The notes: generated from the sequence alone by a model not told the origin. Numbered from the stretch's first letter, positions 11,323 through 62,541 are shown. The stretch: 64,000 nucleotides of DNA from Gaiellales bacterium (GCA_964203045.1 CAXNKU010000005.1:34117-98116), one strand, 5' to 3'. Made by a program: numbers and translations.

Positions 11323-11441
11323 GGAGGATGCGACGAAGGGGTCAGACCCTTTTGTCGCATGCCCGCCCCATTCAGCAGAGGAGCCAGAGACCTCACTATG
11401 GGAATGCGACAAAAGGGTCTGACCCCTTCGTCGCATCCTCC
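11323..11441. repeat. perfect 38-bp inverted repeat (arms 11323-11360 and 11404-11441, 43-nt spacer); each arm is itself a hairpin
   Basis: Left arm ggaggATGCGACgaaggggtcagaccctttt GTCGCAT; the right arm is its exact reverse complement. Coordinates anchored on track ORF 11308..11553. Loop carries GGGGTCAGACCC. Confidence 0.9.
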
Positions 11442-11812
11442 CTGCCGTACGAGCGGACCTGGATTGCGCGTGGTGGGTGACGCGCTACTTGCGTGCGTCG
11501 CGCGCGCTGCGCTGCAGACGAGCGCAGGCGAGGTCGACGAGCAGCGGCGTTGAGCGTGGCGGCGGCGTTTGGGCTCGCGGCATCGAGCGCGACGTCTGGA
11601 GCCCAACGGTCCGCTTCGCGCCACACGTCAGCGAGTTGGTCCAGGGAGTACGACTGTCCCACTTTGCGGACGAGCTCGCTGTAGATCGCCGCGTAAGCCC
11701 GCTCGAACGCGCCGAGGCCCCGGACGTCGAGCCCCGCACGCACACGGCGAGCAGTGCCGGGCGCCTCGCCCCAGGCCTGGATCGCCACTTCCGTCTTGGG
11801 ATTCGGGTTCAC
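11399..11812 (-). CDS. hypothetical protein (C-terminus uncertain, runs into the inverted repeat)
   Basis: GTG at 11812 overlaps the DUF501 stop (GTGA). VNPNPKTEVAIQAWGEAPG...LDQLADVWREADRWAPDV looks coding. The last ~45 codons are Arg-rich, and the final 16 aa are encoded by the repeat arm. Confidence 0.4.
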
Positions 11813-12312
11813 GTCAGCTGCTCCATGCAACACCGCGTCGGCAGGCCACCGGCCTCGGCCAGCAGCGCCTCGCCAATGGGGTACGGTGGCGCTGCGAGGG
11901 CAAAGGCCACGTGGGCATGAAGGCACTTGACGCCACGCTCCGAATGCACGCCGCCAATGCCGAGCCCAAACTCAGGCCGTAACGCTCGGTGCCGCTCCAT
12001 CGCCTCGTCGAAGCCAGCCGCGAGCTCGGGATCGAGCGCAAGGCGCGCCTCGAGTGCCTTGACGCCTCCCTCCCCCTCCAATACGCCAACCGCGTGGACG
12101 AGCCCGGGACAGGAAAGCCAATACGCCGTCGGGAACGGCGTGCCATCTGGTGTGACCGGCGGCTGCTCCACCACGACGGGCCACCCAGCAACACAGCGGC
12201 ACGCCACGCGCAGTGGCGGATACGGCGTTCGCCCTAGCTGTTGCTCGAGGCGAGCCAGGTCTGTCGCATCAATCACGGGCACAGCGTACGCGGGAGGAGC
12301 CTCTGCACGCAC
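11809..12312 (-). CDS. DUF501 domain protein
   Basis: 167 aa. ..PFPTAYWLSCPGLVHAVGVLEGEGGVKALE.. matches the conserved DUF501 core (FPT.YWLTCP...LE..GG). In actinobacteria this family sits next to eno/ftsB. Confidence 0.75.
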   Translation of the reverse strand: MRAEAPPAYAVPVIDATDLARLEQQLGRTPYPPLRVACRCVAGWPVVVEQPPVTPDGTPFPTAYWLSCPGLVHAVGVLEGEGGVKALEARLALDPELAAGFDEAMERHRALRPEFGLGIGGVHSERGVKCLHAHVAFALAAPPYPIGEALLAEAGGLPTRCCMEQLT

Positions 12313-12327
12313 GGCGAATCGGTCAGC

Positions 12328-12579
12328 GTGCGCAAGCTGATCATCATTGGTGTCGTGGTGTTACTGGGTGTGTTGTTCGTGCAGCCGATCCGCGCCTACC
12401 GCGCTGCGCAGTCCGAATTGACGACCGCGCGTGAGCAGCTCGACAGCGCCCGTGCGATCAAGGAACGCGCCGTCAAGGAACGCGATGCCCTCGGCACACG
12501 CGAAATGCTGGTGCGCGAGGCGCGCCGACGCGGCTACATCTTTCCCGGCGAGACACCGTTCTCCGTCGGTAACCGCTAG
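12328..12579 (+). CDS. ftsB: septum formation initiator family protein (FtsB/DivIC-like)
   Basis: Taken from an in-frame GTG of track ORF 12241..12579, because the longer form would overlap the divergent DUF501 start. One TM (KLIIIGVVVLLGVLFV), then a coiled coil, then ..VREARRRGYIFPGETPFSV. Confidence 0.7.
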   Translation: MRKLIIIGVVVLLGVLFVQPIRAYRAAQSELTTAREQLDSARAIKERAVKERDALGTREMLVREARRRGYIFPGETPFSVGNR

Positions 12580-12803
12580 GCGGACACCACATCCGCGCGG
12601 TTGTGATGTCCGCAGGTGGAGTAGCGGCAACTGCTGGGAGGACATGACAAACCGGGGTTTGTGGTGTCCCCCTGCACTAACGACACAGGGCTGCTCGACG
12701 TAACGTTCGAGGGGGACACCACAAACCCCGGTTTGTCATGTCCCCTCAGCCCCAGCGAAGATCCCACCTGCGGACATCACAACCGCGCGGATGTGGTGTC
12801 CGC
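12580..12803. repeat. composite nested inverted repeat made of four hairpin units (family A)
   Basis: 12580-12619 gcggacaccacatccgcgcggttgtgatgtccgcaggtgg is the exact reverse complement of 12764-12803. The inner units 12636-12672 and 12711-12745 (ggacatgacaaaccggggtttgtggtgtccccc) are also mutual reverse complements. Lies between convergent ftsB and the deacetylase gene. Confidence 0.9.
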
Positions 12804-12829
12804 CTCGTACGCAAACGCGAACGGTTGCG

Positions 12830-14050
12830 CTACGACTGCTTAAAGGTGCCGGCGTTCCACTTCGCCAGCTGCGCCGGCGTCTGCTCGTCGAGCCAGCGGG
12901 CGAGGGTGATGAAGTTGACGCAGGCGGTCTCGGGACGCGTGCAGGCGTCGCGTAGGGTCCGCTCGAGAGCATTCATGTACGCACCCTTGTTCCAGTTCGC
13001 GAAATGCGAACCCGTGATGTAGGGCGCACGGTTGCCGCGGTACAGCGAGTTGATCGCATTCATGTAGCTCTGGTAGGTCGTCTGTTCAAACTCGTCGGCC
13101 TGAGCCTGCGTCTCAGCCTGGCCATGGTTGACATAAAAGTTGTAGTCCATCGCCATGGTGTCGTACTTCGATCCGACACGTTTGATCGACGGCAACGCAA
13201 AGTTCCAGAGTCCCTGCTGCTTCGTCGGCCACGCCCCGAGGATGCCGGCCTGGCTCGCGTCGTACTCGAACCCAACCTGCTTCATCGCGTCATACAGCAG
13301 TGGCTTGTTGCCCGACAGGCACGGCGTGCGTCCACCATGAAAGTCCTGCTTCGTGTAGATCGGTGTGGGAATGTTGCTGAGACCATTGACGCCCACAGGA
13401 TCGAGCATGAATTGCTCCCACTGAGACTGCTCACTCACCCACTCTGCCGACGACCAAGCATCCGACTGTTCGCAGAGATGCGAGACGTAGTGCGAACCAA
13501 TCTCGTGCCCCAACGCGCGGGCAGTGTTGAAGTCGGTGACGTTATCGACGAGATTTTCGGCAGCCGACTTCGGCCCGGCGAGTTCGGCATAGCCACCAAG
13601 ATTCGAGAAGCCTCGTGGTTCCTGGGGCGGCTGATACGCGTCTTTCTTCTCCGGTAACAACATGTAGATGCCGCTCACGAAGAAGGTGAAACGCGCGCCA
13701 ACGTCATCGGCCACCTTGAGCCAGCGCTGATACATGCGATAGTCGGCTGCGCCGTCGAACGACGAAACGATGAACTGCGGCGGACGCCCATTCGCAAGCG
13801 CCGTTGCGATAGCGGCTTTCGCCTGCGGCGAAGGCTCCCAATCGGGCAGGATCTGGCTCGGATCGACCGGAACGCCACCACCGTCTGCTCCGTCACCCGC
13901 AGCTGCAGCCTGCTGCTGCTGTCGTCTGTGCCTGCTCAGCCGGCTGCTGTGCATCGGCGTTGGCTTTGTCGTTTGCCTTCGCCTTGGCCGGAACCACCGC
14001 AACCTGCGAGCTGGTTGGATCCTCGCCGCGCGGCCACGCCATCGCGCCAC
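12830..14050 (-). CDS. polysaccharide deacetylase-like (NodB-type) protein; N-terminal signal-anchor appears to lie in another frame
   Basis: 406-aa ORF. ..FIVSSFDGAADYRMY..ARFTFFVSG..GHEIGSHYVSH.. The ORF's own N-terminus (MARWRGRAARIQPARRLRW..) is implausible. Overlapping ORF 13893..14159 encodes a proper membrane anchor (RRRRIVLLLVLATALVVVGGAMAW). Confidence 0.7.
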   Translation of the reverse strand: MARWRGRAARIQPARRLRWFRPRRRQTTKPTPMHSSRLSRHRRQQQQAAAAGDGADGGGVPVDPSQILPDWEPSPQAKAAIATALANGRPPQFIVSSFDGAADYRMYQRWLKVADDVGARFTFFVSGIYMLLPEKKDAYQPPQEPRGFSNLGGYAELAGPKSAAENLVDNVTDFNTARALGHEIGSHYVSHLCEQSDAWSSAEWVSEQSQWEQFMLDPVGVNGLSNIPTPIYTKQDFHGGRTPCLSGNKPLLYDAMKQVGFEYDASQAGILGAWPTKQQGLWNFALPSIKRVGSKYDTMAMDYNFYVNHGQAETQAQADEFEQTTYQSYMNAINSLYRGNRAPYITGSHFANWNKGAYMNALERTLRDACTRPETACVNFITLARWLDEQTPAQLAKWNAGTFKQS

Positions 14051-14273
14051 CCACCACGACGAGCGCCGTCGCGAGCACGAGCAGGAGCACGATCCGTCGA
14101 CGGCGCACGGCCGCCCGCTGACGGTGCTTGGTGTAACGGGCTGTGGAGCGAGTGGCCATCAGGAGTTCTCGCGCGAATCGGGAGATTCAGCGCTCTGCCC
14201 TGACTGTACGACCGGTTGACGGCTATCTCCTGCCCTAAACGGGGGGCCCGCACACGTTGTTACAGATTCGAGA

Positions 14274-16630
<2,357 letters not shown>

Positions 16631-16633
16631 CCG

Positions 16634-17710
16634 TTAGCCCGTAGTCGTTTCCGTCGAAGTGGTCTGCGCCGGCGGCATCGAGTAGCCCTTGGCGAAGGCC
16701 GTCTTGCTCTCGTACGACTTCTGCACGCCCTCGAACCACTTCGTCGCGACCTCATTCTTCTTGGCCTGCGTCAGCTCGTCGATGATCTGCTGCTTGACCT
16801 CGTCGAACGCCTTGACCGTAGCGGGCGTGATCGGGCCGAGCGCCTTGATGATGTGGCACCCGAACTGCGACTGGACCGGCGGATCGGTGATGTCACCCGT
16901 GTTGGCGAGACCGAAAGCACCCTTACGGAAATCGGCATCCCAGTTCTCGTCATCGGTGATCGTGTACTCGCCACCCGTGTCCTTCGAGCCAGGGTCGGCC
17001 GAGTACTTCTTGACAAGCGCCTTCCAATCCTTGGGGTTGGCCTCGACTTCCTTGAGCACCTCAGCAGCCTTGACACAATCGGCGTCCGTGCCCTTCCCCT
17101 TGGGAGCGACGTCGAGCAGAATGTGTGCGACCTTGCGCGACTGCGCCGTCGTGTACTTCTCTTTTTTGTCCTTGTCGAACTGCTTCTGCGCCTCTTCGGC
17201 CGTCACTTTGACACCCTTGGTGACATCGTCGTAGAGCCCCTGAGCCTGCTGACGCAACTCGAACTGTGCCATCAGCTGGGCTTCCGTCAAGCCCTGATCC
17301 TTGAGGTACTTCTGGTACTTGGCTGGCTTGTTCTCGCAGCACTGCAGCTTGAACGCCTCGAGATCGGCGTCGACCTTCTTGGGATCGACCTTGATCTTCT
17401 TCGCCGTGGCTTCCTGCGCGATCTCTGCGTTCTGGACGAGACTCTGCAGCACCTGCTGCTTCAGCGTCGTCTCCTCGGCAGAGCCCTTCTTGGGCGCCGT
17501 CTGCCCATTGGCAACGCCTTGCTTGACGGCGGAGTCGTAGAGCGAATCAAACTCGGCCTGCGTCAGCTGCTGCGACCCGACTGCAGCCACGCTGCCCGCT
17601 GCAACCGTCGGCTTCTCACCCGAGCTCGAGCCCGAATCGGAGCCGCCACAGGCTGCAACGAAGAGCGCCAGGGCGACGAGCAGGATAACGAGCGAAGTGA
17701 CTTTACGCAT
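16634..17710 (-). CDS. parvulin-type peptidyl-prolyl isomerase lipoprotein (PrsA/SurA-like)
   Basis: 358 aa. Lipobox LFVAACGGS. Parvulin core VAHILL..SADPGSKDTGGEY..FGCHIIKAL. Confidence 0.85.
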   Translation of the reverse strand: MRKVTSLVILLVALALFVAACGGSDSGSSSGEKPTVAAGSVAAVGSQQLTQAEFDSLYDSAVKQGVANGQTAPKKGSAEETTLKQQVLQSLVQNAEIAQEATAKKIKVDPKKVDADLEAFKLQCCENKPAKYQKYLKDQGLTEAQLMAQFELRQQAQGLYDDVTKGVKVTAEEAQKQFDKDKKEKYTTAQSRKVAHILLDVAPKGKGTDADCVKAAEVLKEVEANPKDWKALVKKYSADPGSKDTGGEYTITDDENWDADFRKGAFGLANTGDITDPPVQSQFGCHIIKALGPITPATVKAFDEVKQQIIDELTQAKKNEVATKWFEGVQKSYESKTAFAKGYSMPPAQTTSTETTTG

Positions 17711-17759
17711 AGGAAGGTCTCCAGAAAGGAAGTTGGTTCGAACTCACGCGGCTGGGAAA

Positions 17760-21107: not shown

Positions 21108-21170
21108 AGGATTCACGCGCCGGAGCGGCCGTCGAAGCCTACGTCCATACCGCCCACCGGGAGTCAACGC

Positions 21171-22502: not shown

Positions 22503-22526
22503 GCGCCATCAGGGTCCGCTCGCGTT

Positions 22527-22638
22527 CCAGGGAGGACACCACAACCGCGCGGATGTGATGTCCTCCCTGGAACACGCATGCAAAGCCCCACACCAAATGC
22601 AGGGAGGACATCACATCCGCGCGGTTGTGGTGTCCTCC
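22527..22638. repeat. family A hairpin doublet in inverted orientation (REPIN-like)
   Basis: 22527-22570 ccagggaggacaccacaaccgcgcggatgtgatgtcctccctgg (17-bp stem). 22600-22638 is its reverse complement over 39 nt. Lies between convergent M20 and nitrilase-family genes. Same core as 12580-12803. Confidence 0.9.
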
Positions 22639-22661
22639 TAGAAATCCCTTACGCCCTTGAA

Positions 22662-24403: not shown

Positions 24404-24442
24404 GTCCTCATTGTGACCGACGTCGGACAACACCGCGCGCAA

Positions 24443-24978: not shown

Positions 24979-25000
24979 TTGTGCTTCCTAGCGGTACGAG

Positions 25001-31910: not shown

Positions 31911-32822
31911 ATGCACGACGCTGCCACACCACCCGCGATCTGGGTTCGCCACGGAACGCTCTGGCGCCCATTCGACCGTGCGCTCGTCGCCTCACGCGTG
32001 CATGAATACGCCGGTGGGCTGCTGGAGGTTGGCTGCGCCTCCGAGAGCATTTTCGCCCTCGAGCACAACACGGACAGCGAGTCGCTACTGCTCCTGATCG
32101 CCGCACTCGAGATTGGTGTGACGATTCGGCTCGGTACCGCCGATACCCCTTTTGCGGCCGGTTTCGCAACGACACCGATTCGTGCCGCACATCTCGCGTC
32201 ACTCGCCCGGCTCGACTCGGTCTGTGTCCCCGTCGCCCCACGCGAAGACTCGGGTCGCAGCCTCGAACGCCTGGCCGCCCACGGCGTGCTCCATACGGCC
32301 CTGAGGACCGATGCGGTACGTGAGCGCACGCGCGAACGCCACGGCCATCAACGGGCGCTGATCACGTCCACCAACGTGGACTGCACGCTTGGACAACTCC
32401 ACACCGACATCACCGCCTTCCGCGCAGCCGGCGACCTCCTGCGCCCCGACGAGACCATCTTGATCACGGTCCCTTTGGACACGCCGTGGGTTGTCACCGT
32501 CGCCCTCGCCGCGGTCGAGCAAGGCATCCCGGTCGCAATCGGCAGGCTCGAAGACATTCCCCTTCTGAAACCGAGTGTCGTCGTCGGCACGGCGGCGGAT
32601 GCCGACGCCCTGGCCGAGACCACAGCAGGCGGACCAACGCTGTTGACGACGCTCTCTCGCCACCTCGGTCGCAGCCGCACTGCGCCACCGCCGCGCTGCC
32701 TGATCGTCGGCGACCATGAGGTGCCAACGAGCGTCTGCTCCCAGCTGCATCTCGGTGGCACAACGGTGCAGCAGCTCGCAGCAGACGCCGATGGCTTTCT
32801 GCTGCCGCCTGGAGTCGAATAG
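31911..32822 (+). CDS. hypothetical protein, distantly ANL (adenylate-forming enzyme) N-domain-like but lacking the P-loop
   Basis: 303 aa, GC3-rich. ..ALITSTNVDCTLGQLHTDITAF..DETILITVPLDTPWVVTVALAAVEQGIPVAIG.. resembles the layout around the T[ST]G[ST]TGxPKG motif, but the motif itself is absent. Confidence 0.55.
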   Translation: MHDAATPPAIWVRHGTLWRPFDRALVASRVHEYAGGLLEVGCASESIFALEHNTDSESLLLLIAALEIGVTIRLGTADTPFAAGFATTPIRAAHLASLARLDSVCVPVAPREDSGRSLERLAAHGVLHTALRTDAVRERTRERHGHQRALITSTNVDCTLGQLHTDITAFRAAGDLLRPDETILITVPLDTPWVVTVALAAVEQGIPVAIGRLEDIPLLKPSVVVGTAADADALAETTAGGPTLLTTLSRHLGRSRTAPPPRCLIVGDHEVPTSVCSQLHLGGTTVQQLAADADGFLLPPGVE

Positions 32823-32823: not shown

Positions 32824-32870
32824 TGGATCAACTTTGCTTTGGGGTCTGACCCCTAAGCAAAGTTGATCCA
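32824..32870. repeat. 47-bp near-perfect palindrome (16-bp arms, GGGGTCTGACCCC centre)
   Basis: tggatcaactttgctt tggggtctgacccct aagcaaagttgatcca. Begins 1 nt after the stop of the upstream gene. Anchored on stop 32820-32822. Confidence 0.9.
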
Positions 32871-48589: not shown

Positions 48590-48597
48590 ATCCTGAC

Positions 48598-49499: not shown

Positions 49500-49867
49500 C
49501 AGAGCACCTCCGGTGCCAGCGAGACAATGCGCATGAAGTTGCGCTCGCGCAGCTCACGTGCGACGGGTCCAAAGATACGCGTTCCACGCGGGTTGCCGGC
49601 GGGATCAATGATCACGGCAGCATTGTCGTCGAAGCGAATGTTCGTACCGTCATCACGGTGGTGCGCCTTCGTGGTGCGGACGACCACAGCGTGGACGACC
49701 TCACCCTTCTTGACGGCGCCATGCGGCGTTGCCTGCTTGACGGTGGCGATGATGATGTCCCCCACGCGTGCGTAACGACGGTGCGAACCGCCGCGAACAC
49801 GGATGCAGAGGATCTCGCGAGCACCGGTGTTATCGGCCACGCGGAGTCGGGATTCCTGCTGGATCAC
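49499..49867 (-). CDS. rplN: 50S ribosomal protein L14
   Basis: 122 aa. [24 protein letters not shown]... Confidence 0.97.
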
Positions 49868-50484
49868 TTGGCCACCTCAACGATCTCGATCAGGCGCCAA
49901 TGCTTCGTGCGCGACAGCGGGCGTGTCTCGACGACGCGAACCGTGTCGCCAATGTTGGCGGCATTCTTCTCGTCGTGCGCGTGCAACGTCATCGAGCGGC
50001 GCATGATCTTCTTGTACTTCGGGTGTGCCTTGAGGACGTCGACGCGAACCGTGATGGTCTGCTCCGACTTGTTCGACGTGACAACGCCACGACGCTCTCG
50101 GCGACGGCCCTCTTCGGTCTCCTCCGCAGGCGTGCGCACGTAGGCGCCGCCCTTGGACTCGCCGCGACGACGCTTGCGCGCCTCGGCCGACTTCTTGCGG
50201 AGCTCGGCGCGCTCGGCAGCCGTCGTGCGCACGCGGCGCGGACGGGGCGAGCGCGGACCGCGCTTCTTCTTCTCTTTGACAGGAGCAGCCTCTTCAGCAG
50301 GTGCCTCTTCAGCAACAGCCTCTTCAGCAGGTGCCTCTTCAGCAACAGCCTCAGGAGCAGCCTCTTCGGCAGCGGCCTCGGGAGCAGTCTCCTCGACAGG
50401 AGTCTCCTCGACGACAGCTTCCACAGGAGCGGCTTCCTCGACGGGAGTCTCCTCCACGTCTGGGGTCTCGTTCTCGTCGCTCAC
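49864..50484 (-). CDS. rpsQ: 30S ribosomal protein S17 with ~120-aa low-complexity N-terminal extension (start uncertain)
   Basis: The canonical S17 core (..[68 protein letters not shown]) occupies only the last ~80 aa of a 206-aa ORF. The ORF's GTG (50484) overlaps the rpmC stop (GTGA). Alternative internal GTGs lie at 50232 and 50139. Confidence 0.85.
50287..50346. repeat. in-frame 30-bp tandem duplication inside the S17 extension
   Basis: agcctcttcagcaggtgcctcttcagcaac x2, encoding (V)AEEAPAEEA twice. Coordinates are approximate to within a few nt. Confidence 0.7.
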
Positions 50485-50690: not shown

Positions 50691-50695
50691 AGAGA

Positions 50696-51109
50696 TCACC
50701 TCTCTCGAGTCACGAACGAGCAGCGTGATCGGCAATTTTTGGGCAGCGAGTCGGAGCGCGTCGCGCGCCAACGGCTCAGGCACACCAGCGAGCTCGAACA
50801 TCACGCGGCCGGGGCGCGACGACGGCGACCCAGAACTCCGGGCGAGCCCTTACCCGAACCCATGCGGGTCTCGGCAGGCTTCTTCGTGACGGGCTTGTCC
50901 GGGAAGATTGTGATCCAGACCTTGCCACCGCGCTTGATCTTGCGGGTCATGGCAATACGTGCAGCCTCGATCTGGCGGGCCGTGACCCAGCCCTCTTCCA
51001 TCGCCTTGAGACCGTACTCGCCGAAGTTGACGCGAGCGCCACCCTTCGTCTCACCGGTGCGGCGGCCGCGATGAACGCGACGATGCTTGACACGACGTGG
51101 CATCAACAT
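50696..51109 (-). pseudogene. rplP: 50S ribosomal protein L16 gene, reading frame broken three times as sequenced (probably sequence error)
   Basis: Frame A (ORF 50801..51109) reads [29 protein letters not shown], then nonsense and a stop. Conserved EFWVAVVAP lies in frame +1. [29 protein letters not shown] lies in frame +2. The canonical end FVTRER-TGA (50698-50696) is back in frame A. Confidence 0.85.
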
Positions 51110-52269
51110 CAGGAACCAGCCTCCTCGTCGGCAGGCGCCTCAGCGGCGGGTGCCTCGTCGGCGGGAGCCTCGTCGGCGGGAGCCTCTTCGGCAACAGCCT
51201 CGACGACGACCTCTTCGGCAACAGCCTCAGCGGGCGTCTCGACGACAGCCTCTTCAATGACAGCCTCGACTGCGGCCTCAGCGACAGGCGCCTCGTTGAC
51301 CGGAGTCTCGATGATCTCCTCGACGATGGTCTCTTCGACCACTGCGGGTGTCTCGGGCTTGGGACGTGCACGACGACCGGCCGGAACGGACGGACCGCTG
51401 AGACGCGGCTGGTTCGGTCCACCTGGACCACCAGCGCCACCACCGCCGCGTGGACGACGATCGCCGCCGCGGTCGTTGCGGTCGCCACCACCAGGACCAC
51501 CAGCGCCACCACCCGGCGCGCCACGACGACCCTTGGGCCGTGCAGGTCCGAGCTCTTCGATGGCACCCTTGGCGCCACCCTTGCGGCGTCGAGCGTCGAC
51601 CTCGCCGAGGCGCGTTGCGCCGACGTCAGCCGACTCGTAGCCCTCAGGCATGATCTCGCCCTTATTGATCCAGACCTTCACGCCAATGCGGCCGTAGGTC
51701 GTCTTGGCCTCAGCGAAGCCATAATCGATGTCGGCGCGCAGCGTCTGAAGCGGCACGCGACCCTCCGAGTACTGCTCGGTGCGCGACATTTCGCCGCCAC
51801 CAAGGCGGCCGCCGCACTTGATGCGGACACCCTGGGCGCCGGAACGCACAGCCGACTGCATCGAGCGCTTCATGGCGCGGCGGAAGGCCACACGATTCTG
51901 CAGCTGCTCTGCGACGGACTGCGCCATCAGGCGCGCGTCCAACTCGGGGCGCTTGATCTCGTTGATGTTGATCTGCACGGCACGACCGGTGATCGCATGC
52001 ACTTCCTTGCGGAGAGCGTCAACTTCGATACCAGACTTGCCGATCACGATGCCCGGACGGGCCGTGTAGATGTCGATCGTGATCTTCTGTGAGTCCTTGC
52101 GGATATGAATATCCGACAAGCCCGCATGGCTCAACTTGTTGTGAATGTGCTCGCGAATCTTGATGTCTTCGCCGAGATAACGAGCGAACTCGCGATCCGA
52201 GCACCAATTGGATTTCCAGTCGTGGATGATCCCGACGCGCAGGCCACCTGGATGTACTTTCTGGCCCAT
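51109..52269 (-). CDS. rpsC: 30S ribosomal protein S3 with ~160-aa Gly/Arg-rich then acidic C-terminal extension
   Basis: 386 aa. Canonical [24 protein letters not shown] and S3-C domains fill the first ~225 aa. Then comes [32 protein letters not shown], then a (E/A/V/P)-rich tail. The stop overlaps the rplP ATG by 1 nt. Confidence 0.93.
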
Positions 52270-52271
52270 GG

Positions 52272-53066
52272 TCAGTCCTTCTCCCCGTCGGGGGTATCCG
52301 TCTTCGGCGGTGCAGCTTTCGGAGCGCGCTTACGCGGCGCAGCCGGCTTCTTCTCAGCGGTACCGTCAGCAGCCGCAGCCTTTGGCTTAGCGGGTGCCTT
52401 TGGCTTGGCGGGTGCCTTTGGCTTCGCAGCGGCCTTTGGCTTCGCAGCGGCCTTCGGCTTCGCAGCAGCGGCCTCAGTCGGCTCGGCCTTCGGCTTCGCA
52501 GGCGCCTTCGGCTTCGCAGCGGCCTTCGGCTTGGCTGCGGCCTTCGGCTTCTCAGCGACCTCAGCAGCGTCGGTAGCAACCTCTGCCCCATCGGCCTTCT
52601 GCGAGGCAGCAACACGCTTCGAGCGGGCGGAATCGCCAGCCTTCTTCGGCGCAACAGTCTCCGTCGTGCCATCGACCGTGGACTCGATCACTGTGCCGCC
52701 CGAAAGCGAGCGAAGCAGGATCGTGATGTGGGCCGTGCGCTTACGGATCTTGCTGGCGCGACCACGAGCACGTGGCTTAAAGCGCTTGATCGTGACGCCC
52801 TCGTTGGCGAACGCCTCGTGAATCACGAGATCGTCCGGCGAGAGGCCATGATTGACTTCGGCATTCGTGACGGCAGAGCGCAGCACGAGCTCGATGTCTT
52901 TGGCCACAGCACGTGGCGAGAACAGGAGCTGCTTGCGCGCGTCGATCACAGAACGACCGCGAATGTCCTCGAGCACGAGGCGAACCTTGCGGGCGGACGA
53001 GCGGACGTGACGCGCCTCGGCGCGGACCAGTCCGGTGTTCGCAAAGCTGAAGCGCTTATCAGCCAT
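52272..53066 (-). CDS. rplV: 50S ribosomal protein L22 with ~145-aa Ala/Lys/Pro-repeat C-terminal extension
   Basis: Internal ATG ([40 protein letters not shown]..) of ORF 52272..53213. The core ends near ..RTAHITILL. The tail contains (AKPKAA)n repeats. Confidence 0.92.
52375..52555. repeat. 18-bp in-frame tandem repeats inside the L22 tail
   Basis: gcctttggcttNgcNgNg repeated about 9-10 times on the plus strand, giving (A)AKPKA(A/P) units on the minus strand. Boundaries are approximate. Confidence 0.7.
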
Positions 53067-53067
53067 C

Positions 53068-54185: not shown

Positions 54186-54487
54186 TATGCAACTCCCTCA
54201 AAGATCGGAATGGACTGGCCCTCGGCGAGCTTGACGATCGCCTTCTTGCCACCAGGACGAATGCCCTGGAACTGGCCGCGGCGCTTCGGCTTGCTCGGCA
54301 CCTTGATGATGTGCACGTCGACCACGTTGACGTTGAAGATCTCCTCAACGGCCTGACGGATCTGCGTCTTATGCGCATCGGGATGCACGCGGAACGTGTA
54401 CTTGCCGTCCTCGGTCAACGAGTAGCTCTTCTCGCTCACGACGGGTGCGAGGAGCACGGCGTGCGCGTCGGGTGTGGTCGACTTCAT
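54185..54487 (-). CDS. rplW: 50S ribosomal protein L23
   Basis: 100 aa. ..[40 protein letters not shown]... Confidence 0.95.
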
Positions 54488-55125: not shown

Positions 55126-55126
55126 C

Positions 55127-55744
55127 TCAGTGCACGTCCTCTCGGATTTCGACGAGCGAACCCTTGGGCCCCGGAATCGCGCCCGAGACGAGCAGCACGT
55201 TGCGGGTCGGATCGACGTCGATGATGGTCAGGCCGCGCTGCGTGATGCGCTTGTTGCCCATCTGCCCAGCCATGCGCTTGCCCTTGAACACGCGGGACGG
55301 CCACGCCGACTGACCAATCGAGCCAGGGGCACGCACGTTGTGCGAGCCGTGGCTGACGGGGCCGCGGCTGAAGCCGTGGCGCTTAATCGTGCCTGCGAAA
55401 CCCTTACCGACGCTGGTGCCCGAAACCTTGACGTGATCGCCAGGGCCAAACACACCAACGGTCACGGCCTCGCCAACGGCGAGGTCGGTCGTACCGCGGA
55501 ACTCCGTCAGATGACGATGCGGTCCGACGCCGGCCTTCTTAAAATGGCCGGCTTCCGGCTTGGAAAGATCCGTCAGATCAACTGTGTGGTACGCGAGCTG
55601 AACACCGTCGTACCCATCGATGTCAAGCGTGCGCACACCGACGATCGGGCAGGGGCCCGCCTCAATCACGGTCACGGCCAAGCGCGCGCCATCCTCCGTG
55701 AAGAGCTGGGTCATACCCAGTTTGCGTCCGATGATTGCTTTCAT
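55127..55744 (-). CDS. rplC: 50S ribosomal protein L3
   Basis: 205 aa. MKAIIGRKLGMTQLFTEDG..GKGFAGTIKRHGFSRGPVSHGS... Confidence 0.97.
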   Translation of the reverse strand: MKAIIGRKLGMTQLFTEDGARLAVTVIEAGPCPIVGVRTLDIDGYDGVQLAYHTVDLTDLSKPEAGHFKKAGVGPHRHLTEFRGTTDLAVGEAVTVGVFGPGDHVKVSGTSVGKGFAGTIKRHGFSRGPVSHGSHNVRAPGSIGQSAWPSRVFKGKRMAGQMGNKRITQRGLTIIDVDPTRNVLLVSGAIPGPKGSLVEIREDVH

Positions 55745-55747
55745 GAT

Positions 55748-56056
55748 CTAGAGCTTGATCTCGATGTCGATGCCGGCTGGCAGATCAAGTCGCATCAGCG
55801 AGTCGACCGTCTTGGGCGTGGGGGAATGAATGTCAATCAACCGCTTGTGGGTGCGGATCTCGAAGTGTTCCCGCGAATCCTTGTCCTTGAACGGAGATCG
55901 GATCACGCAGTAGACGTTCTTCTCGGTCGGCAACGGCACAGGGCCGGAGACGGTCGCGCCGGAGCGCACCGCCGTCTCGACGATGTCCTTTGCCGACCGA
56001 TCCAGCGTCTGGTGGTCGTAGCCCTTAAGGCGGATGCGGATTTTCTGCTCAGCCAA
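55748..56056 (-). CDS. rpsJ: 30S ribosomal protein S10
   Basis: 102 aa. [43 protein letters not shown]. Starts only 5 nt after the tuf stop. Confidence 0.97.
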
Positions 56057-56061
56057 TTGAG

Positions 56062-57249
56062 TTACTTGATGATCTTCGTGACGACGCCGGCGCCGACGGT
56101 GCGGCCACCTTCGCGGATTGCGAAGCGGAGGCCCTCGTCCATGGCGATCGGCTGAATCAGCTCGACCTTGATCGACGTGCGGTCACCAGGCAGGCAGATG
56201 TCCGTGCCTTCAGGCAGGACAACGGAGCCGGTGACGTCCGTCGTGCGGAAGTAGAACTGTGGGCGGTAGCCCGAGAGGAAACGCGTGTGACGGCCACCCT
56301 CTTCCTTCGTGAGGACGTAGATGTCCGCCTCGAAGTCAGTGTGCGGGGTGATCGAACCGGGCTTCGACAGAACCTGACCGCGCTCGACGTCCTCGCGCTT
56401 GAGGCCACGAACGAGGCAGCCAGCGTTGTCGCCAGCTTCGCCACGATCAAGATCCTTGTTGAACATCTCGACGCCGGTAACGGTCGTCTTCTGCGTGTCG
56501 CGGAGGCCCACGATCTCGACTTCGTCACCGACAGTGACGACGCCCTTCTCGATGCGGCCCGTAACGACGGTGCCACGACCGGTGATCGTGAAGACGTCCT
56601 CGATTGCCATCAGGAGCGGCTTGTCCGTGTCACGGACGGGCTCCGGAATGTAGGAGTCGACGGCGTTCATCAATTCCACGATCGACTCGGTCCACTTCTC
56701 GTCGCCCTCGAGCGCCTTCAGAGCGGAAACCTGAATCACCGGAATGTCGTCACCCGGGAACTCGTACTTGGAGAGCAACTCGCGAACCTCGAGCTCGACG
56801 AGCTCGAGCATCTCGGGATCGTCCACCATGTCGGCCTTGTTGAGGGCGACAACGATGTACGGCACGCCGACCTGGCGGGCCAGGAGGATGTGCTCGCGCG
56901 TCTGCGGCATCGGGCCGTCAGCAGCGGACACGACCAGGATTGCGCCGTCCATCTGGGCGGCACCCGTGATCATGTTCTTGATGTAGTCGGCATGGCCCGG
57001 GCAATCGACGTGGGCGTAGTGACGCGCCTCGGTCTCATACTCAACGTGCGCGGTGTTAATCGTGATGCCGCGCTCGCGCTCCTCGGGAGCATTGTCAATC
57101 GATGCAAAGTCACGGACGGCGCCGGTGCCATTACGCTCGGCAAGGACCTTCGTGATTGCAGCGGTCAACGTCGTCTTGCCATGGTCGATGTGACCGATGG
57201 TGCCGACATTGAGATGGGGCTTGTTTCGCTCGAACTTCTGCTTGGACAT
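56062..57249 (-). CDS. tuf: elongation factor Tu
   Basis: 395 aa. [22 protein letters not shown] motifs. Confidence 0.99.
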
Positions 57250-57327
57250 TATCTTCTCCCGGGTTCCCTGGGCTGGTGCGGTTGGTCTGGTTCTGGTGGA
57301 CTGAGATAGTGGACTAGAGGTGGCCGG

Positions 57328-59439
57328 TTAGGCCTTCGCCGTAATCGTTTCGGCGATGTTCTTCGGCACTTCCTCGTAATGCAGGAACTGCATGGTGTAC
57401 GTTGCGCGGCCCTGCGAGAGGGAGCGCGAGTCGGTCGCGTAGCCGAACATTTCCGACAACGGGACGCGAGCGGTGATGACCTGGGCGTTGCCGCGGGGCT
57501 CCATGCCCTCAACGCGGCCACGACGACTGTTGAGGTCGCCGATCACGTCGCCCATGTACTCCTCGGGGGTCACAACTTCGACCGTGAAGATCGGCTCGAG
57601 CAGCGCGGAGTCACCGCGGCGCAGACCCTCCTTGAGGGCCATCGAGCCAGCAATCTTGAAGGCCATTTCCGAGGAGTCAACATCGTGGAAGGTGCCGTCG
57701 ATCAGCTGCACCTTGACGTCGACGACGGGGAAGCCTGCAATGACGCCCGTGTTGAGCGCCTCGCGGGCACCTTCGCCGACAGCCTTGTGGTACTCCTTCG
57801 GCACGACGCCGCCGACGATCTTGCTCTCGAACGAGAAGCCTGCACCCGGCTCGGCGCGCTCAACGCGCAACCAGACGTCGCCGTACTGGCCACGACCACC
57901 GGACTGGCGCACAAACTTGCCTTGGACCTTCTCGACGTTCTTGCGAATCGTCTCGCGGTACGCGACCTGCGGCTTACCAACGTTGGCGTCGACGGCGAAC
58001 TCGCGCATCAGACGGTCAACGATGATCTCGAGGTGAAGCTCGCCCATGCCAGCGATCAGCGTCTGGCCCGTCTCTTCGTCAGTCTTGACGCGGAACGTGG
58101 GGTCTTCTTCCGAAAGACGCTGCAGTGCGGTGGCGAGCTTGTCTTGGTCGGCCTTCGTCTTCGGCTCGACTGCGACCTCGATCACGGGCTCGGGGAAGAT
58201 GATCGACTCGAGCAAGACTGGCTGCTTCTCGTCGCACAGCGTGTCACCGGTCGTGGTCGACTTGAGGCCGACGGCTGCGGCGATCTCGCCGGCACCAACC
58301 TCGTCGCGCTCCTCGCGGTGGTTGGCGTGCATCTGGAGGATGCGGCCAACGCGCTCCTTCTTGTCCGTCGACGAGTTGTAGATCGGCGACCCGGCGCTGA
58401 GCCGGCCGGAATAGACGCGGAAGTAGGTCAGCTTGCCGACGAACGGATCGCTCATCACCTTGAAGGCGAGGGCGGCGAAGGGTGCATCGAGGGTGGCTTC
58501 GCGGATGACTTCTTCGTCCGAGCGCGGCTTTGTACCGGTGACGGGCGGAATGTCGAGCGGGCTCGGCAGGTAGGCGATAACGGCGTCGAGCATCTGCTGG
58601 ACACCCTTGTTCTTAAAGGCCGAGCCGCACAAGAGCGGCGTGATCGACAGGTCGAGCGTCGCAGCGCGAATCGCGCTGATCAGGTCGTTGTTGTCGACTG
58701 GCTGATCCTCAAGGAAGGCCATCATGATGTCTTCGTTGTGGTCGGCGACGGCTTCGATCAGCTCGTGGCGGGCAGCGGTAGCGGCGGCCAGCAGGTCGCC
58801 CTCTGGCTCGGACTCGGTCCAAGAAAGACCGCGGTCGTCGATATCGAAGTTGATCGCCACCATGCGCACGAGGTCGACCATGCCGGAAAAGCTGTCCTCG
58901 GCACCGATCGGGATCTGGATAGCAACCGGATTAGCTCCGAGGCGATCGATGATTGTGGACTTGACGTACGCGAAGTCGGCGCCAACGCGATCCATCTTGT
59001 TGACGAAGGCGATGCGCGGCACGCTGTACTTGTCGGCTTGGCGCCAGACGGTCTCGGACTGGGGCTGAACACCAGCAACAGAGTCGAAGACGGCGACAGC
59101 ACCATCGAGCACGCGCAACGAGCGCTCCACTTCAACGGTGAAGTCCACGTGCCCGGGTGTATCGATGATGTTGATGCGATGACTGCTCCACAGCGCCGTC
59201 GTGGCAGCCGAGGTAATCGTGATGCCGCGCTCTTGCTCCTGGACCATCCAGTCCATGGTTGCGCCACCCTCGTGCACCTCGCCCAACTTGTGGGTGCGGC
59301 CCGTGTAGAACAGGACGCGCTCGGTGACGGTGGTCTTGCCCGCATCGATGTGGGCCATGATGCCGATGTTGCGGTACAGGTCCAACTGGTCGGCGCGCGG
59401 GGCGGAGGACTCAGTCTGTGTCTCGATAACGGTAGTCAT
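57328..59439 (-). CDS. fusA: elongation factor G
   Basis: 703 aa. [21 protein letters not shown] motifs. Full five-domain length. Confidence 0.99.
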
Positions 59440-59444
59440 GTCAA

Positions 59445-59915
59445 TTACCAGCGGTAGTGCGCGAAGGCCTTATTGGCTTGCGCCATTCGGTAGATGTCGT
59501 CCTTGCGCTTGAACGCGCCACCCTGCTGATTCGTTGCCTCCAGAATCTCAGCGGCAAGGCGCTCATGCGAGCCGCGCTCACGGCGCTGACGGGCGAACGT
59601 GACAATCCAGCGGATTGCCAGCGTACGGGCGCGACGAACAGGGACCTCAACAGGAACCTGGTAGTTCGCACCACCGACGCGGCGGCTGCGGGTCTCCAAG
59701 ACGGGCGTGACGGACTTGATTGCCTGGTCGAGCACCTCAAGCGGATCGCGGCCGGACTTCTCACCAACGATGGTGAGGGCGCCGTACACGATGCTCTCAG
59801 CGGTCGAACGCTTGCCGTCAAGCATCACCTTGTTGATCACCTGGGTGACCAGCGTCGATCCGTAGACCGGATCGGGAATCAGCTCGCGGGGGACAATGTC
59901 TGCTCGGCGTGGCAT
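59445..59915 (-). CDS. rpsG: 30S ribosomal protein S7
   Basis: Internal ATG ([20 protein letters not shown]..) of ORF 59445..59984. Ends ..NKAFAHYRW. Confidence 0.97.
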
Positions 59916-59919
59916 AGCT

Positions 59920-60289
59920 CTACGACTTCTTTGCGCCGTACTTGGAGCGAGCCTGCTTGCGATCAGCAACGCCGGATGTATCAAGTGCTGCCCGTACGAC
60001 CTTGTAGCGGATGCCTGGGAGATCCTTCACACGACCACCGCGGACGAGCACAATCGGAGTGCTCCTGCAGGTTGTGGCCGATGCCGGGGATGTAGGCGGT
60101 GACTTCCATGCCGTTCGAGAGTCGGACGCGGGCAACCTTACGAAGCGCCGAGTTCGGCTTCTTCGGGGTTGTCGTGTAGACGCGCGTGCAGACGCCACGC
60201 TTCTGCGGGGCACCCTTCAACGCGGGTGTCTTCGACTTCGACTTCTCTGGCGTGCGCGGCTTGCGCACGAGCTGATTGATAGTGGGCAT
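59920..60289 (-). pseudogene. rpsL: 30S ribosomal protein S12 gene, one extra base breaks the frame as sequenced (probably sequence error)
   Basis: ORF 59981..60289 gives [78 protein letters not shown], then nonsense. ORF 59920..60213 ends with the rest, [44 protein letters not shown]. Junction cactccGattgtg lies near 60055. Confidence 0.9.
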
Positions 60290-60537
60290 GGACCTCGAAG
60301 TCCGGTTGGGGTTGGCGCCCGAAGACGCACGTGTACGAGTGCGACCAAAGTCGCAGCCCGAGAACCTTACGGCACCTCAGCAAAAGCGCCAAACGACAAC
60401 CGTCACCCACGACGGGCCGGATCCGTTCTGGACGTGTCTTACAGCCAAGACTCCGAGGATTCATGACTGTCTGTGTGTAAACGGAGGTATACGCGATACG
60501 TCGGACGGAATCTTCCCACCACCTGCGTTACTGATCG

Positions 60538-61488
60538 TCACGGCGTCAGCAATTGCAGTCCCAGCGACGTGCGTTGACCATTTCCGAGCACTTGGATTGC
60601 CTCGCCCGAGGTCTGAATCACAGCAATTCCGACGGAGTCGCCGGCAGACAATCTGAGTATCGTCGAGACATTCAGCTCTGACGGTTGGCCCCCGGCATTG
60701 ACCGCACTCTGTTGCTCACCGGCAAACGGGTTCGCCGGATCGCCCGCAGGAATGATCCAGATGCCACGCGTCCCCGAGCCATTGTTCTGGAACAAGACAC
60801 CGCCCGTGACGGCGTAGATACCGGTCACGGGCGCTCGCATCTGAGCCGGCTGACCGGTCGACCAAACACCGTCCCGGTTGTAGGCGGCATCGGTCAGAGC
60901 GATCTCGGTCACGACGCCGCTCGCAATGCTGATCGGAGCCGCCCGATAGGCACGGGCTCCCGGCAGCGGCGCTAGTTCAGAGACGCCGACCGCGCCGGCT
61001 GCAATCTCGCTCGACCCTACCCCACCCTTGGCAAGTTGATCCCGACCAATACTGTTCGCCGCGATCTTATTCGGCCCGATCGAGCCATCAGCGATGTCCG
61101 ATGCGCGCACCGCCCCCGCTGCGAGCTCGGCCGAGCCGACGGCACCAGCGGCAAGCTCCGCGCTACCAACCGCGCCTGTCGCAATTGCAGAGGCCTTAAC
61201 GCTGCCGACAGCAAGACCCGGCCGTGGATAGGTTCCAGTGAGGACACCCCCCGCTTTGATCCCTGCCAGATTCGCTCGGGCGACCTGGCCGCGCTTAAAC
61301 GCGGTGTAGAGCAGCGTTCCTTTGTGAATCTTGGCGTTCGTGACAGCGCCATTCTTGATATTGCCCGTACCAATCGTCGCCTTGACCGCCCGCGCACCGG
61401 CGTCAGTCAGCGCGGGCAGTGCGACGGCGCCGATCACCGCCGCCACTACGAGAGTCAGTACTCCACGCCGTCGTCCAGTGCACTTCAC
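60538..61488 (-). CDS. membrane-anchored repeat protein with C-terminal C1q/TNF-like jelly-roll domain (fibre-like surface protein)
   Basis: GTG 61488 within ORF 60538..61590; the first 34 codons of the ORF are translated repeat DNA. The product has an N-terminal TM (VLTLVVAAVIGAVALPAL) followed by ~10-aa periodic repeats (IATGAVGSAEL AAGAVGSAEL AAGAVRASDI ADGSIGPNKI AANSIGRDQL AKGGVGSSEI AAGAVGVSEL). Next comes ..APVTGIYAVTGGVLFQNN..ILRLSAGDSVGIAV..TSLGLQLL, which resembles the C1q head pattern. GC is lower than in the neighbouring genes. Confidence 0.65.
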   Translation of the reverse strand: MKCTGRRRGVLTLVVAAVIGAVALPALTDAGARAVKATIGTGNIKNGAVTNAKIHKGTLLYTAFKRGQVARANLAGIKAGGVLTGTYPRPGLAVGSVKASAIATGAVGSAELAAGAVGSAELAAGAVRASDIADGSIGPNKIAANSIGRDQLAKGGVGSSEIAAGAVGVSELAPLPGARAYRAAPISIASGVVTEIALTDAAYNRDGVWSTGQPAQMRAPVTGIYAVTGGVLFQNNGSGTRGIWIIPAGDPANPFAGEQQSAVNAGGQPSELNVSTILRLSAGDSVGIAVIQTSGEAIQVLGNGQRTSLGLQLLTP

Positions 61489-61554
61489 TGTGAGCCTCCC
61501 GATTGTGATGCCACCGAGTCTGACGATATTGGCGACCGCGAGCAAGCCCCGCCT

Positions 61555-61722
61555 CGATTGTCCAGAAGGGGTCAGGCACGATCTGGACATTTGATCGACG
61601 AGCTAGCTCGTCATCGAATGTCCAGATCGTGCCTGACCTTCTGGACAATCGACTCATATTCACGCTCGTCCGTAGTCGACAGCCAATGTCCAGATCGTGC
61701 CTGACCCCTTCTGGACAATCGA
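61555..61722. repeat. family B hairpin cluster: ~97-bp palindrome (two inverted units around a central GACGAGCTAGCTCGTC hairpin) plus a third unit
   Basis: Unit = (c)gaTTGTCCAGA aggggtcaggcacga TCTGGACAtt. Units lie at 61557-61591 (+), 61617-61650 (inverted, loop lacks GG) and 61685-61722 (inverted). Anchored on ORF starts 61590 and 61697. Lies in the divergent region between the fibre-like gene and the redoxin gene. Confidence 0.9.
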
Positions 61723-61791
61723 TACTCACAAACAGAAGGCCCTGTTGTCGCCTGCGCGGGCCAGCGGCACGAGCCCTGCGATAGTGGGGGC

Positions 61792-62310
61792 ATGGACTTC
61801 CCCGACATCACCCTCCCCCGCGCCGGTGGCGGCACCGTCGCTCGCGCAGACCTCGTCGGGCGGCCGTGGATTGTCTACCTCTCGCGCCACCTCGGCTGCT
61901 CGGTGTGTCAGCGTCACCTCCGCCGCTCGGTGGAGACCAAGACCGCGATTCGTGCGGCCGGTGCTGATCTACTCGTCGTGCTGCCAACGTCGCCAGGACG
62001 TGCGGAAGGCTGGCAGCAGTCGAACAATGCGCAGAATGTCACGGTGATCGGCGACGAGGACTGCGCGCTCTACCACGCACTCAACATCGGCCGTGGTACG
62101 CCGCGGAAACTCCTGCTCGACCCACGGTCGTGGCGCGAGGCAACCGGCGAGCTGCTGCACGGGCACTTCCCGTCGAAGCACCGTGGCGCCGACGGCTTCC
62201 AACTCGGCGCCGACCTGGTCCTCGATGCCGAGGGGCGCATCGTCTTCATTCACCGGCCGGCGACGGCAGCAGATCGCATCCCCGTTGAGCAACTGCTCAG
62301 GTACGTCTAA
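61792..62310 (+). CDS. AhpC/TSA-family redoxin-like protein
   Basis: 172 aa. ..FPDITLPRAGGGTVARADLVGRPWIVYLSRHLGCSVCQRHL.. (thioredoxin-fold N-terminus with CxxC) ..GADLVLDAEGRIVFIH... Confidence 0.7.
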   Translation: MDFPDITLPRAGGGTVARADLVGRPWIVYLSRHLGCSVCQRHLRRSVETKTAIRAAGADLLVVLPTSPGRAEGWQQSNNAQNVTVIGDEDCALYHALNIGRGTPRKLLLDPRSWREATGELLHGHFPSKHRGADGFQLGADLVLDAEGRIVFIHRPATAADRIPVEQLLRYV

Positions 62311-62320
62311 GACCTAAACG

Positions 62321-62363
62321 GGATCAGCTTTGCTTTGGGGTCAGGCCCTGATGCAAAGCGCGC
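62321..62363. repeat. hairpin related to the 32824 palindrome (shared ATCARCTTTGCTTTGGGGTC)
   Basis: ggatcaGCTTTGCtttggggtcaggccctgatGCAAAGCgcgc. 7-bp stem, loop carrying GGGGTCAGGCCC. Lies 11 nt after the redoxin stop. Confidence 0.8.
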
Positions 62364-62382
62364 GCGAAGTGGCCCCACGCCT

Positions 62383-62541
62383 CGAATGTCCAGAAGGGGT
62401 CAGGCACGATCTGGACATTCGATGACGAGTGAGCTCGTCTAACAAATGTCCAGATCGTGCCTGACCCCTTCTGGACATTCGATGACGAGTGAGCTCGTCT
62501 GACAAATGTCCAGATCGTGCCTGACCCCTTCTGGACATTCG
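62383..62541. repeat. family B tandem array: three 60-bp-period units (hairpin X plus hairpin Y), first X loop inverted
   Basis: X units at 62385-62419, 62445-62479 and 62505-62539 (AATGTCCAGA-15 nt-TCTGGACATT). Y hairpins GACGAGtgagCTCGTC at 62424-62439 and 62484-62499. Anchored on ORF start 62538. Confidence 0.9.

Follow-up and report, generated by a model that had tools for sequence, protein, structure and literature searches.

Hairpin repeats carrying a GGGGTCAG apex in uncultured Gaiellales-like Actinomycetota and their probable association with RAYT-like transposases

Introduction

The 64,000-nt stretch of Gaiellales DNA analyzed here (GCA_964203045.1, CAXNKU010000005.1:34117-98116; hereafter the window) contains a set of intergenic hairpins that present a common motif, GGGGTCAG. 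These hairpins are likely to be small extragenic palindromic repeats, belonging to three related families, that serve as the cognate flanking repeats of Y1 (HUH) transposases with a C-terminal helix-turn-helix (HTH), similar to the repetitive extragenic palindromic (REP)-associated tyrosine transposases (RAYTs) and of the TIRYT/TIRtron kind. Systems of this kind are already known; the present one is a member in a new lineage, the uncultured Thermoleophilia/Gaiellales-like Actinomycetota. Common to all of the hairpins is the apex GGGGTC-W-GRCCC(C), or, in the class designated 4, the core CCAGAAGGGGTCAGGCAC, and the outer stem differs with each transposase paralogue. A conspicuous intergenic motif is thereby explained as the signature of a transposase-linked repeat system.

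Transposase genes bracketed by the hairpins

A crude search of six-frame translations for the motif Y...NPVRAG matched a single contig, L070 (1,342 nt), in which an open reading frame (ORF) of 251 aa (444-1199) lies between two class-4 doublets (207-301 and 1217-1311). The encoded protein scores 39 bits against the Pfam model Y1_Tnp (cut-off 23); with NCBIfam models it scores 74 bits for REP-associated tyrosine transposases (cut-off 80), compared with 15 bits for IS200, and many of its homologues have been named "REP element-mobilizing transposase RayT" by JGI. The homologues are found mostly on contigs of 0.9-1 kb that end in repeats, as expected if assemblies break there; the left flank of L070 is itself orthologous to the end of contig L011, from a Gaiellales metagenome-assembled genome (MAG), which breaks inside the doublet. 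Six further paralogues, at 40-50% identity, bring the RAYT-like loci bracketed by GGGGTC-W-G hairpins to seven (L070, L079, L083, L092, L093, L094 and L097; Table 1). At these loci GGGGTC[AT]G is present in the flanks and the apex GGGGTC-W-GRCCC(C) is common, each locus having a stem of its own. Three of the flanking types match hairpin classes of the window: class 4 at L070, the class-1 type at L079 and the class-2/3 type at L083. The MAG that carries the class-1-type locus, SupBloom_Metag_035 (P0005), also carries class-4 units (L010 and L016), and in L046 AAAAAGGTGTCAGGAACCTTTTT flanks a RAYT-like gene that is more distantly related. A Y1 transposase or RAYT gene between such hairpins, which the preliminary description of this DNA had proposed to look for, therefore exists in related contigs as seven paralogous loci with the GGGGTC-W-G core.

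The proteins have the features expected of this enzyme family. Across 30 homologues the HUH motif (N-H-x-H) and the tyrosine in RY[VI]xLNPVRAGL (Y119) are invariant, and a C-terminal HTH-like segment, RPxLxEI...Y..IA..GV..TV.R, is conserved. The L070 protein matches HTH_23 at E = 6.7e-4, under the gathering score, and PF13384 is precomputed on P0003, P0006, P0008 and others. When the transposase profile was compared with the PDB, the best match was 4ER8, the E. coli TnpA-REP (E = 6e-7), followed by IS200/IS605 enzymes at about E = 0.01 and, weakly, by small HTH proteins. The AlphaFold (AF2) model has a pLDDT (predicted local distance difference test) of 92.3, with helices at 204-250, and its best fold match is again 4ER8, an enzyme solved bound to a REP hairpin (target template-modelling score 0.72), ahead of the IS608 and ISDra2 TnpA proteins.

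Two observations concern the surroundings of P0010 in L083. The segment downstream of the gene, 2600-2900, is a tandem array of units of about 48 nt (…acgacggtagtagc…caacgcccacggaaca…), and past the array, at about 2960-3070, lies an apparent tRNA gene on the minus strand.

The motif and its hairpins in the window

Counts and coordinates refer to the whole window, and expectations were obtained from dinucleotide-preserving shuffles. The 10-mer GGGGTCAGRC has 10 exact matches against 0.30 expected, and the 12-mer GGGGTCAGRCMC has nine against 0.06; the motif is real, and all of the positions first reported for it hold. Although 92.8% of the window is called coding by a codon-usage gene model, nine of the ten 10-mer matches are intergenic and lie within hairpins. 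The tenth, at 15585, falls within a MazG-like ORF where there is no hairpin, and it could have arisen by chance. Ten hairpin copies, all in non-coding DNA, had been described; this stands for nine, the tenth hairpin unit (61627-61639) being degenerate. It reads GGTCAGGCACGA, with a GG lost, and is the exception among ten units of which nine contain GGGGTCAG; its counterpart in L001, a sister assembly of the same population that is 97.5% identical to the window, reads GACCCCC.

Table 1. Hairpin units of the window and transposase loci flanked by related hairpins (fold: kcal/mol; z against shuffled controls)
Feature	Location	Strand	Description	Fold
Class-1 unit, left arm of inverted doublet	11313..11364	+	hairpin ATGCGAC-GAAGGGGTCAGACCCTTTT-GTCGCAT, motif at paired apex	-14.3; z = -5.1
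Class-1 unit, right arm (inverted copy)	11400..11451	-		
Class-2 unit	32824..32870	.	near-perfect palindrome with 23-bp arms, TGGATCAACTTTGCTTTGGGGTC-T-GACCCCTAAGCAAAGTTGATCCA, one T·T mispair	-23; z = -8.2
Class-4 unit	61554..61591	+	loop AGGGGTCAGGCACGA; first in array upstream of AhpC-like gene; 100% complementary to 61685-61722	
Class-4 unit, degenerate	61614..61650	-	loop TCGTGCCTGACCT, two C lost	
Class-4 unit, inverted	61685..61722	-		
Class-3 unit	62323..62360	+	decayed member of class-2 family sharing GGATCAGCTTTGCTTTGGGGTC, 3' half diverged	weak; z = -1.8
Class-4 unit	62382..62419	+	first in array downstream of AhpC-like gene; 13-bp stem, 15-nt loop	-13.5; z = -4.6
Doublet spacer	62420..62444	.	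own mini-palindrome GACGAG-TGAG-CTCGTC; consensus elsewhere GACGAGCTAGCTCGTC	
Class-4 unit, inverted	62445..62482	-	with 62382-62419, canonical inverted doublet of ~103 nt	
Class-4 unit	62505..62542	-	60-nt tandem duplicate of preceding unit plus spacer	
P0005	L079, MAG SupBloom_Metag_035		doublets of GGATGTCACAAAGGGGTCAGACCCTTTTGTGACATCC on both sides (class-1 type); ORF ends inside repeat	
P0010	L083		CTTTGCAGAGGGGTCTGGCCCCTTTGCT palindromes (class-2/3 type), related CTTTGC...GGGGTCTG	
P0019	L092		flanked by TGAACAAAGGGGTCAGACCCCTTTGTTCA; stop codon inside GGGGTCTGA	
P0021	L093		flanked by CCTTAATGAAACAAAGGGGTCTGGCCCCTTTGTTTCATTAAGG	
P0020	L094, same MAG as P0021		flanked by TGAATGAAAGGGGYCWGRCCCCTTTCATTCA	
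P0004	L097		several further stems	

The arms of the class-1 doublet are 52 nt long and 90% complementary, and the stretch 11313-11451 folds as a single long hairpin (-58.1 kcal/mol, z = -13.0); a weak ORF call (11396-11812, score 9.2) overlaps the right arm with its 3' end. The class-2 unit begins 2 nt past the stop codon of ORF 31911-32822, and a further, non-orthologous copy of this class is present at L003 1433-1463. On either side of an AhpC/TSA-like gene (61792-62310), class-4 units are arranged as + - - triplets of 60-nt period. Within the downstream array, the doublet formed by 62382-62419 and 62445-62482 is 100% complementary and folds at -55.3 kcal/mol (z = -15.5), and its spacer is conserved in about 20 doublets of other contigs.

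Other observations were made at these arrays, which bracket the AhpC/TSA-like gene in a region spanning 61447-62612. When L001 760-1000 was compared with window 62377-62560, the L001 scaffold was seen to link two forms of the downstream array, one with a single unit and one with three, over a gap of N, which reflects either a copy number that varies within the population or an artefact of assembly at the repeat. A 350-aa ORF on the minus strand (60538-61590) has its start within unit 61554-61591, whereas 61446 is the start preferred on codon usage. Each class-4 unit begins with ATGTCCAGA, and mechanical ORF calling can therefore pick spurious ATG codons inside units as starts.

Three candidate identifications were rejected. 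A CRISPR array does not fit, since the spacers, of 23-27 nt, are nearly the same, both among themselves and from genome to genome, and the orientation of the units alternates. A CGTC-tagged REP, suggested by the CGTC/GACG held in the spacer, was discarded because CGTC-type REPs have 8-9 bp stems and 4-5 nt loops and no associated transposase. A RAYT remnant beside the class-1 doublet (11452-11982) was also dismissed: the tblastn matches of P0005 are weak (E = 0.09-0.4) and include no HUH or Tyr motif. They are explained by the P0005 ORF extending into the hairpin next to it, so that the peptide TKGSDPFV is translated repeat.

Placement of the repeats relative to genes

Hairpin repeats are present in each of the window's four convergent intergenic gaps: motif-bearing classes in two of them (class 1 in one, classes 3 and 4 in the other) and a second, motif-less hairpin family in the remaining two (12570-12805 and 22522-22639). 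In 20 sequences, comprising the window and 19 loci of other genomes, no class-4 unit falls inside a predicted gene; the units lie between genes in every orientation, often 1-16 nt past a stop codon. These placements could point to a function for the host, as could the retention of units at orthologous loci of different species despite divergent flanks, with compensatory change in the outer stem: hairpins kept at gene ends as 3' structures that stabilize or terminate transcripts, or as sites for nucleoid or topology proteins such as those reported for E. coli REPs and bacterial interspersed mosaic elements (BIMEs), with a host protein reading the motif. The REP roles named by Di Nocera et al. 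2013 (PMC3733652) include mRNA stabilization and termination. Nevertheless, we regard host function as an unlikely primary explanation. An intrinsic terminator was rejected as the main role, since no T-run follows 11360 or 11440 (class 1), 32870 (class 2) or the class-4 units, and rpoC has a classical terminator of its own beside the array, the true terminator-like site, at 62558-62601. Units also occupy divergent and promoter-side gaps (e.g., 61447-61791), and both orientations occur, so that no single RNA strand is favoured. Host function also leaves the bracketing of seven transposase paralogues unexplained. It is compatible with transposase-linked repeats as a secondary, co-opted role, and such a role at convergent gene ends is possible.

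Relatedness of the stems and pairing of the motif

The stems had been described as four unrelated sequences that display the motif in a single-stranded loop. Comparison of the classes leads to a different picture. The repeats at 32824-32870 and 62323-62360 share GGATCA[A/G]CTTTGCTTTGGGGTC at 21 of 22 bases, so that classes 2 and 3 form one family of which the 62323-62360 copy is decayed. The ATGCGAC...GTCGCAT hairpins at 11.3 kb (class 1) and the ATGTCCAGA...TCTGGACAT hairpins at 61-62 kb (class 4) align collinearly and without gaps as 33-mers with the pattern ATG-NNNN-GAAGGGGTCAG...NNNN-CAT; 20 of the 33 positions are identical, and all four stem pairs that differ are compensated. The class-1-type hairpin of L079 bridges the two, being identical to class 4 at 23 and to class 1 at 28 of the 33 positions. 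The four stems thus reduce to two or three related families. One apex with replaceable stems holds at the level of the superfamily, and the stems are relatives that have diverged by compensatory change.

Nor is the motif mostly unpaired. In classes 1-3, folded as single-stranded DNA, it makes up the upper end of the stem, which is complementary to itself and capped by a loop of 3-5 nt. A 15-nt loop containing the motif is seen only in isolated GAATGTCCAGA (class-4) units; where class-4 units form inverted doublets, this "loop" pairs with that of the other unit, giving an uninterrupted hairpin of about 38 bp.

Compensatory change was examined in 24 apex hairpins, from the window and the transposase flanks, aligned on their centres over a 15-pair stem. 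GGGGTC.G.CCC is invariant among them. Stem cells are paired in 88.9% of cases against 70.8% in shuffles, a value reached by none of 500 shuffles; 10 of the 15 stem pairs have changed on both sides; and the covariation score is 0.50, compared with 0.19 when shuffled and at most 0.16 with slid partners. Within class 4, the 3-4 nt just beyond AATG...CATT vary among loci yet stay complementary, and at one orthologous locus the change can be followed stepwise, from catg/catg (L017) through catg/cacg (L020) to cgtg/cacg (L066). The earlier view that the pattern is not the product of simple repeat decay is borne out by the constancy of the apex and the covariation of the outer stems from family to family.

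The symmetry of the apex raises the question of whether folding matters at all. GGGGTC-N-GACCCC might be bound as duplex DNA by a dimeric HTH protein, possibly through the C-terminal HTH of the transposase, with extrusion irrelevant. In classes 1-3 and most of the transposase-flanking hairpins the apex is indeed a perfect or near-perfect 13-bp palindrome, and the transposases do have a conserved C-terminal HTH-like domain. However, class 4 keeps only the half-site GGGGTCAGGCAC, without a palindromic partner inside the unit; the strong covariation of the stems beyond the apex is not required by a duplex operator; the catalytic domain best matches an enzyme solved on a folded REP hairpin (4ER8); and Quentin et al. 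2018 (PMC6006769) remark that target recognition may not be the task of the HTH. A duplex operator is accordingly improbable, more so than host function.

Energies far under those of shuffled controls and covarying stems are also properties of structured RNA, and G·T positions give some units a strand asymmetry, as a cis-regulatory or small RNA family with a conserved apical sequence might have. Rfam provides no family for them: in searches at gathering and permissive thresholds, tRNA-Pro was the one family to reach its gathering score in the window, the sub-threshold matches are generic long-hairpin matches to microRNA precursor models, and the loci of a separate CCAGAAGGGGTCAGGCAC-bearing element (see below) gave none. 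The neighbouring genes are functionally unrelated, and the units occur in both orientations relative to them and as inverted doublets. We consider an RNA family the least credible of the alternatives, and very improbable.

Several results weigh against the assignment of these hairpins to RAYT-like transposases. No transposase gene was found within the window by motif regular expression or tblastn, as had been stated at the outset, so that it is related MAGs and metagenome contigs that provide the link to the copies of the window itself. The L070 protein reaches 74 bits (E = 1.1e-20) with the NCBIfam model for REP-associated tyrosine transposases (NF047646), against an equivalog cut-off of 80. 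The GTAG/GTGG tag at the hairpin foot is absent from all listed unit flanks, which are locus-specific. The generic 8-mer GGGGWSAS shows no enrichment in the window (21 matches, 17.3 expected); enrichment is confined to the specific GGGGTCAG form. Finally, copies within a family share descent, and the covariation therefore rests on about eight independent stem families.

Occurrence in other genomes and metagenomes

A scan of a genome collection with the class-4 pattern found 19 loci in six GTDB MAGs labelled Thermoleophilia, Gaiellales, Actinomycetota or "Acidimicrobiaceae", and a metagenome scan with CCAGAAGGGGTCAGGCAC found about 20 further class-4 contigs; viral contigs gave no match to the class-4 pattern. 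Class 4 is near-identical across the six MAGs and the metagenome contigs, its canonical form being a 103-nt inverted doublet, unit(+) - T[GT]GAT[AG]GACGAGCTAGCTCGTC..ATC - unit(-). Proteins of the window share 90%-identity clusters with proteins of Thermoleophilia and Gaiellales MAGs. Orthologous loci differ in copy number, L010 being a singlet and L017 and L020 doublets, L013 a singlet and L015 a doublet, and the inner segments of L002 and L003 differ.

At one orthologous site in two MAGs, conserved class-4 units bracket either a single 105-aa gene (L013 2017-2465) or a 4.5-kb segment of four genes (L015 721-5779), which places the units at the edges of variable gene content.

The exact 18-mer CCAGAAGGGGTCAGGCAC also occurs in another element of about 100 nt, which consists of two hairpins, GGGACAGGCACCGTTTG..CAAACGGTGCCTGTCCC followed by CCAGAAGGGGTCAGGCAC-GTTTTC..GAAAAC-GAGCCAGACCCC. 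This element occupies a conserved intergenic site in other high-GC metagenome lineages (contigs L022, L024, L026, L027, L032, L037, L040, L041, L046, L053, L059, L061, L063, L069 and L073), is tandemly duplicated in L032 and has no Rfam match. In L035 the CCAGAAGGGGTCAGGCAC core is the stem of a terminator-like hairpin followed by T6.

Proposed mechanism

The preliminary description had suggested a hairpin recognized by a protein, which is largely right, though the system is one already known. By analogy with characterized enzymes, the hairpins are probably moved by the transposase, and the conserved core may be a determinant of recognition or cleavage. In the model we propose, units would fold into hairpins when the DNA becomes single-stranded, for example on the lagging-strand template. 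The HUH/Y1 transposase would bind the hairpins through the conserved core, then cut and rejoin nearby, and this would spread copies into intergenic DNA. The stem would set the specificity of each paralogue, and the core would be the common recognition element. These steps are drawn from the established biochemistry of the IS608 and ISDra2 TnpA proteins and of E. coli TnpA-REP. Slippage or recombination between the direct ATGTCCAGA/TCTGGACAT repeats of the palindromic stem would generate singlets, doublets and triplets, and adequately explains this variation.

The nonanucleotide of rolling-circle Rep origins sits at the hairpin tip, and the GTAG of REPs sits at the foot. A more speculative proposal, which we put forward tentatively and think rather doubtful, is that the shared recognition or cleavage module of the present system (GGGGTC-W-GRCCCC) lies at the tip rather than the foot of the hairpin, that paralogue specificity resides in the covarying stem, and that the units at convergent gene ends and cassette boundaries (the AhpC-like gene; L013 and L015) have been co-opted by the host. 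Were this true, paralogue/repeat pairs in single Thermoleophilia genomes would be a natural matrix for the reading of hairpins by HUH enzymes. In any case, at least seven paralogues with one shared apex and differing stems offer a ready series on DNA recognition by a little-studied transposase subclass. The repeats also break MAG assemblies, several loci ending inside a unit.

Other features of the window

The second hairpin family lacks GGGGTCAG and has the form GG[AG]GGACAYCACA-N10-TGTGRTGTCC[CT]CC. Its sites (12570-12805 and 22522-22639) are the convergent gaps past a DivIC-like gene and an M20 peptidase gene. The first contains nested inverted pairs, an outer one (12578-12619/12764-12805, 100% complementary) and an inner one (12633-12673/12710-12750), and a further pair lies at 22531-22569/22600-22638. 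At the foot of the inner pair is GGGGACAC, a further fit to GGGGWSAS, and a C/T versus G/A asymmetry marks orientation. A search for translated-repeat peptides in 120 homologues found no transposase partner for this GGACAYCACA... family.

Three ribosomal proteins encoded on the minus strand, S17 (206 aa, 49864-50484), S3 (386 aa, 51109-52269) and L22 (264 aa, 52272-53066), have long low-complexity extensions encoded by periodic repeats of 12, 15 and 18 nt.

Comparison with known systems

The IS200/IS605 TnpA enzymes (IS608, ISDra2), whose elements have subterminal hairpins, recognize imperfect hairpins on single-stranded DNA. They share the HUH/Y1 fold with the transposases described here and differ in that they match them much more weakly (15 bits with the NCBIfam IS200 model; Foldseek E of about 3e-4, compared with 1e-6 for 4ER8); in the present system, moreover, repeats are dispersed without the gene, and no TnpB partner was seen.

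The resemblance to the REP/REPIN-RAYT systems of Proteobacteria (E. coli TnpA-REP, 4ER8; Pseudomonas REPINs, PMC3116915) is closer. The repeats are short, multi-copy, extragenic imperfect palindromes that form inverted doublets with short spacers, the properties by which REPs and REPINs are recognized, and the doublets fold as one hairpin. Also in common are BIME-like arrays of alternating orientation, the REPtron arrangement, repeats specific to each paralogue's family and a protein whose best match is 4ER8. In contrast, the protein is about 250 aa long with an extra HTH, compared with 165 aa in E. coli, and the conserved element is apical. As the GTAG tag is absent, the repeats are not classed as GTAG REPs, and we consider the system REPIN-like in its working and TIRYT in kind.

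A literature search for the 12-mer returned unrelated primer matches only. The motif is nonetheless no novelty, since it matches the GGGGWSAS signature of TIRYT-associated repeats set out in the text of the two published surveys (PMC3733652, PMC6006769). As presented in the text of Di Nocera et al., RAYT-like genes that are flanked by terminal inverted repeats (TIRs) instead of GTAG REPs were named TIRYT, and the corresponding unit TIRtron; many TIRs at these genes share GGGGWSAS, and some are self-complementary or constitute dispersed families found as dimers or clusters. Quentin et al. assigned most TIRYTs to TnpA-REP subclass 2.1, long proteins with a C-terminal HTH_23, HTH_28 or Bac_DnaA_C domain that are flanked by GGGG[AT][CG]A[CG] (PMC6006769). 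The present system resembles these in several respects: a long Y1 transposase with HUH motif, catalytic Tyr and an HTH_23-like C-terminus; a gene between inverted repeats containing GGGGWSAS (here GGGGTCAG), of which the downstream one can overlap the 3' end of the gene; moderately abundant dispersed repeats, partly self-complementary and arranged as dimers or clusters; and several paralogues per genome, each with a repeat of its own. It differs, in a comparison made by motif, in that every repeat is a hairpin with the motif at or near the apex and forms REPIN-like doublets. The main text of both surveys is silent on Actinobacteria, and Quentin et al. reported that subclass 2.1 genes had no REP-like sequences adjacent to them; what is new is therefore the clean hairpin/doublet form and the lineage, and the finding extends TIRYT/REPIN-like elements to the uncultured Thermoleophilia/Gaiellales.

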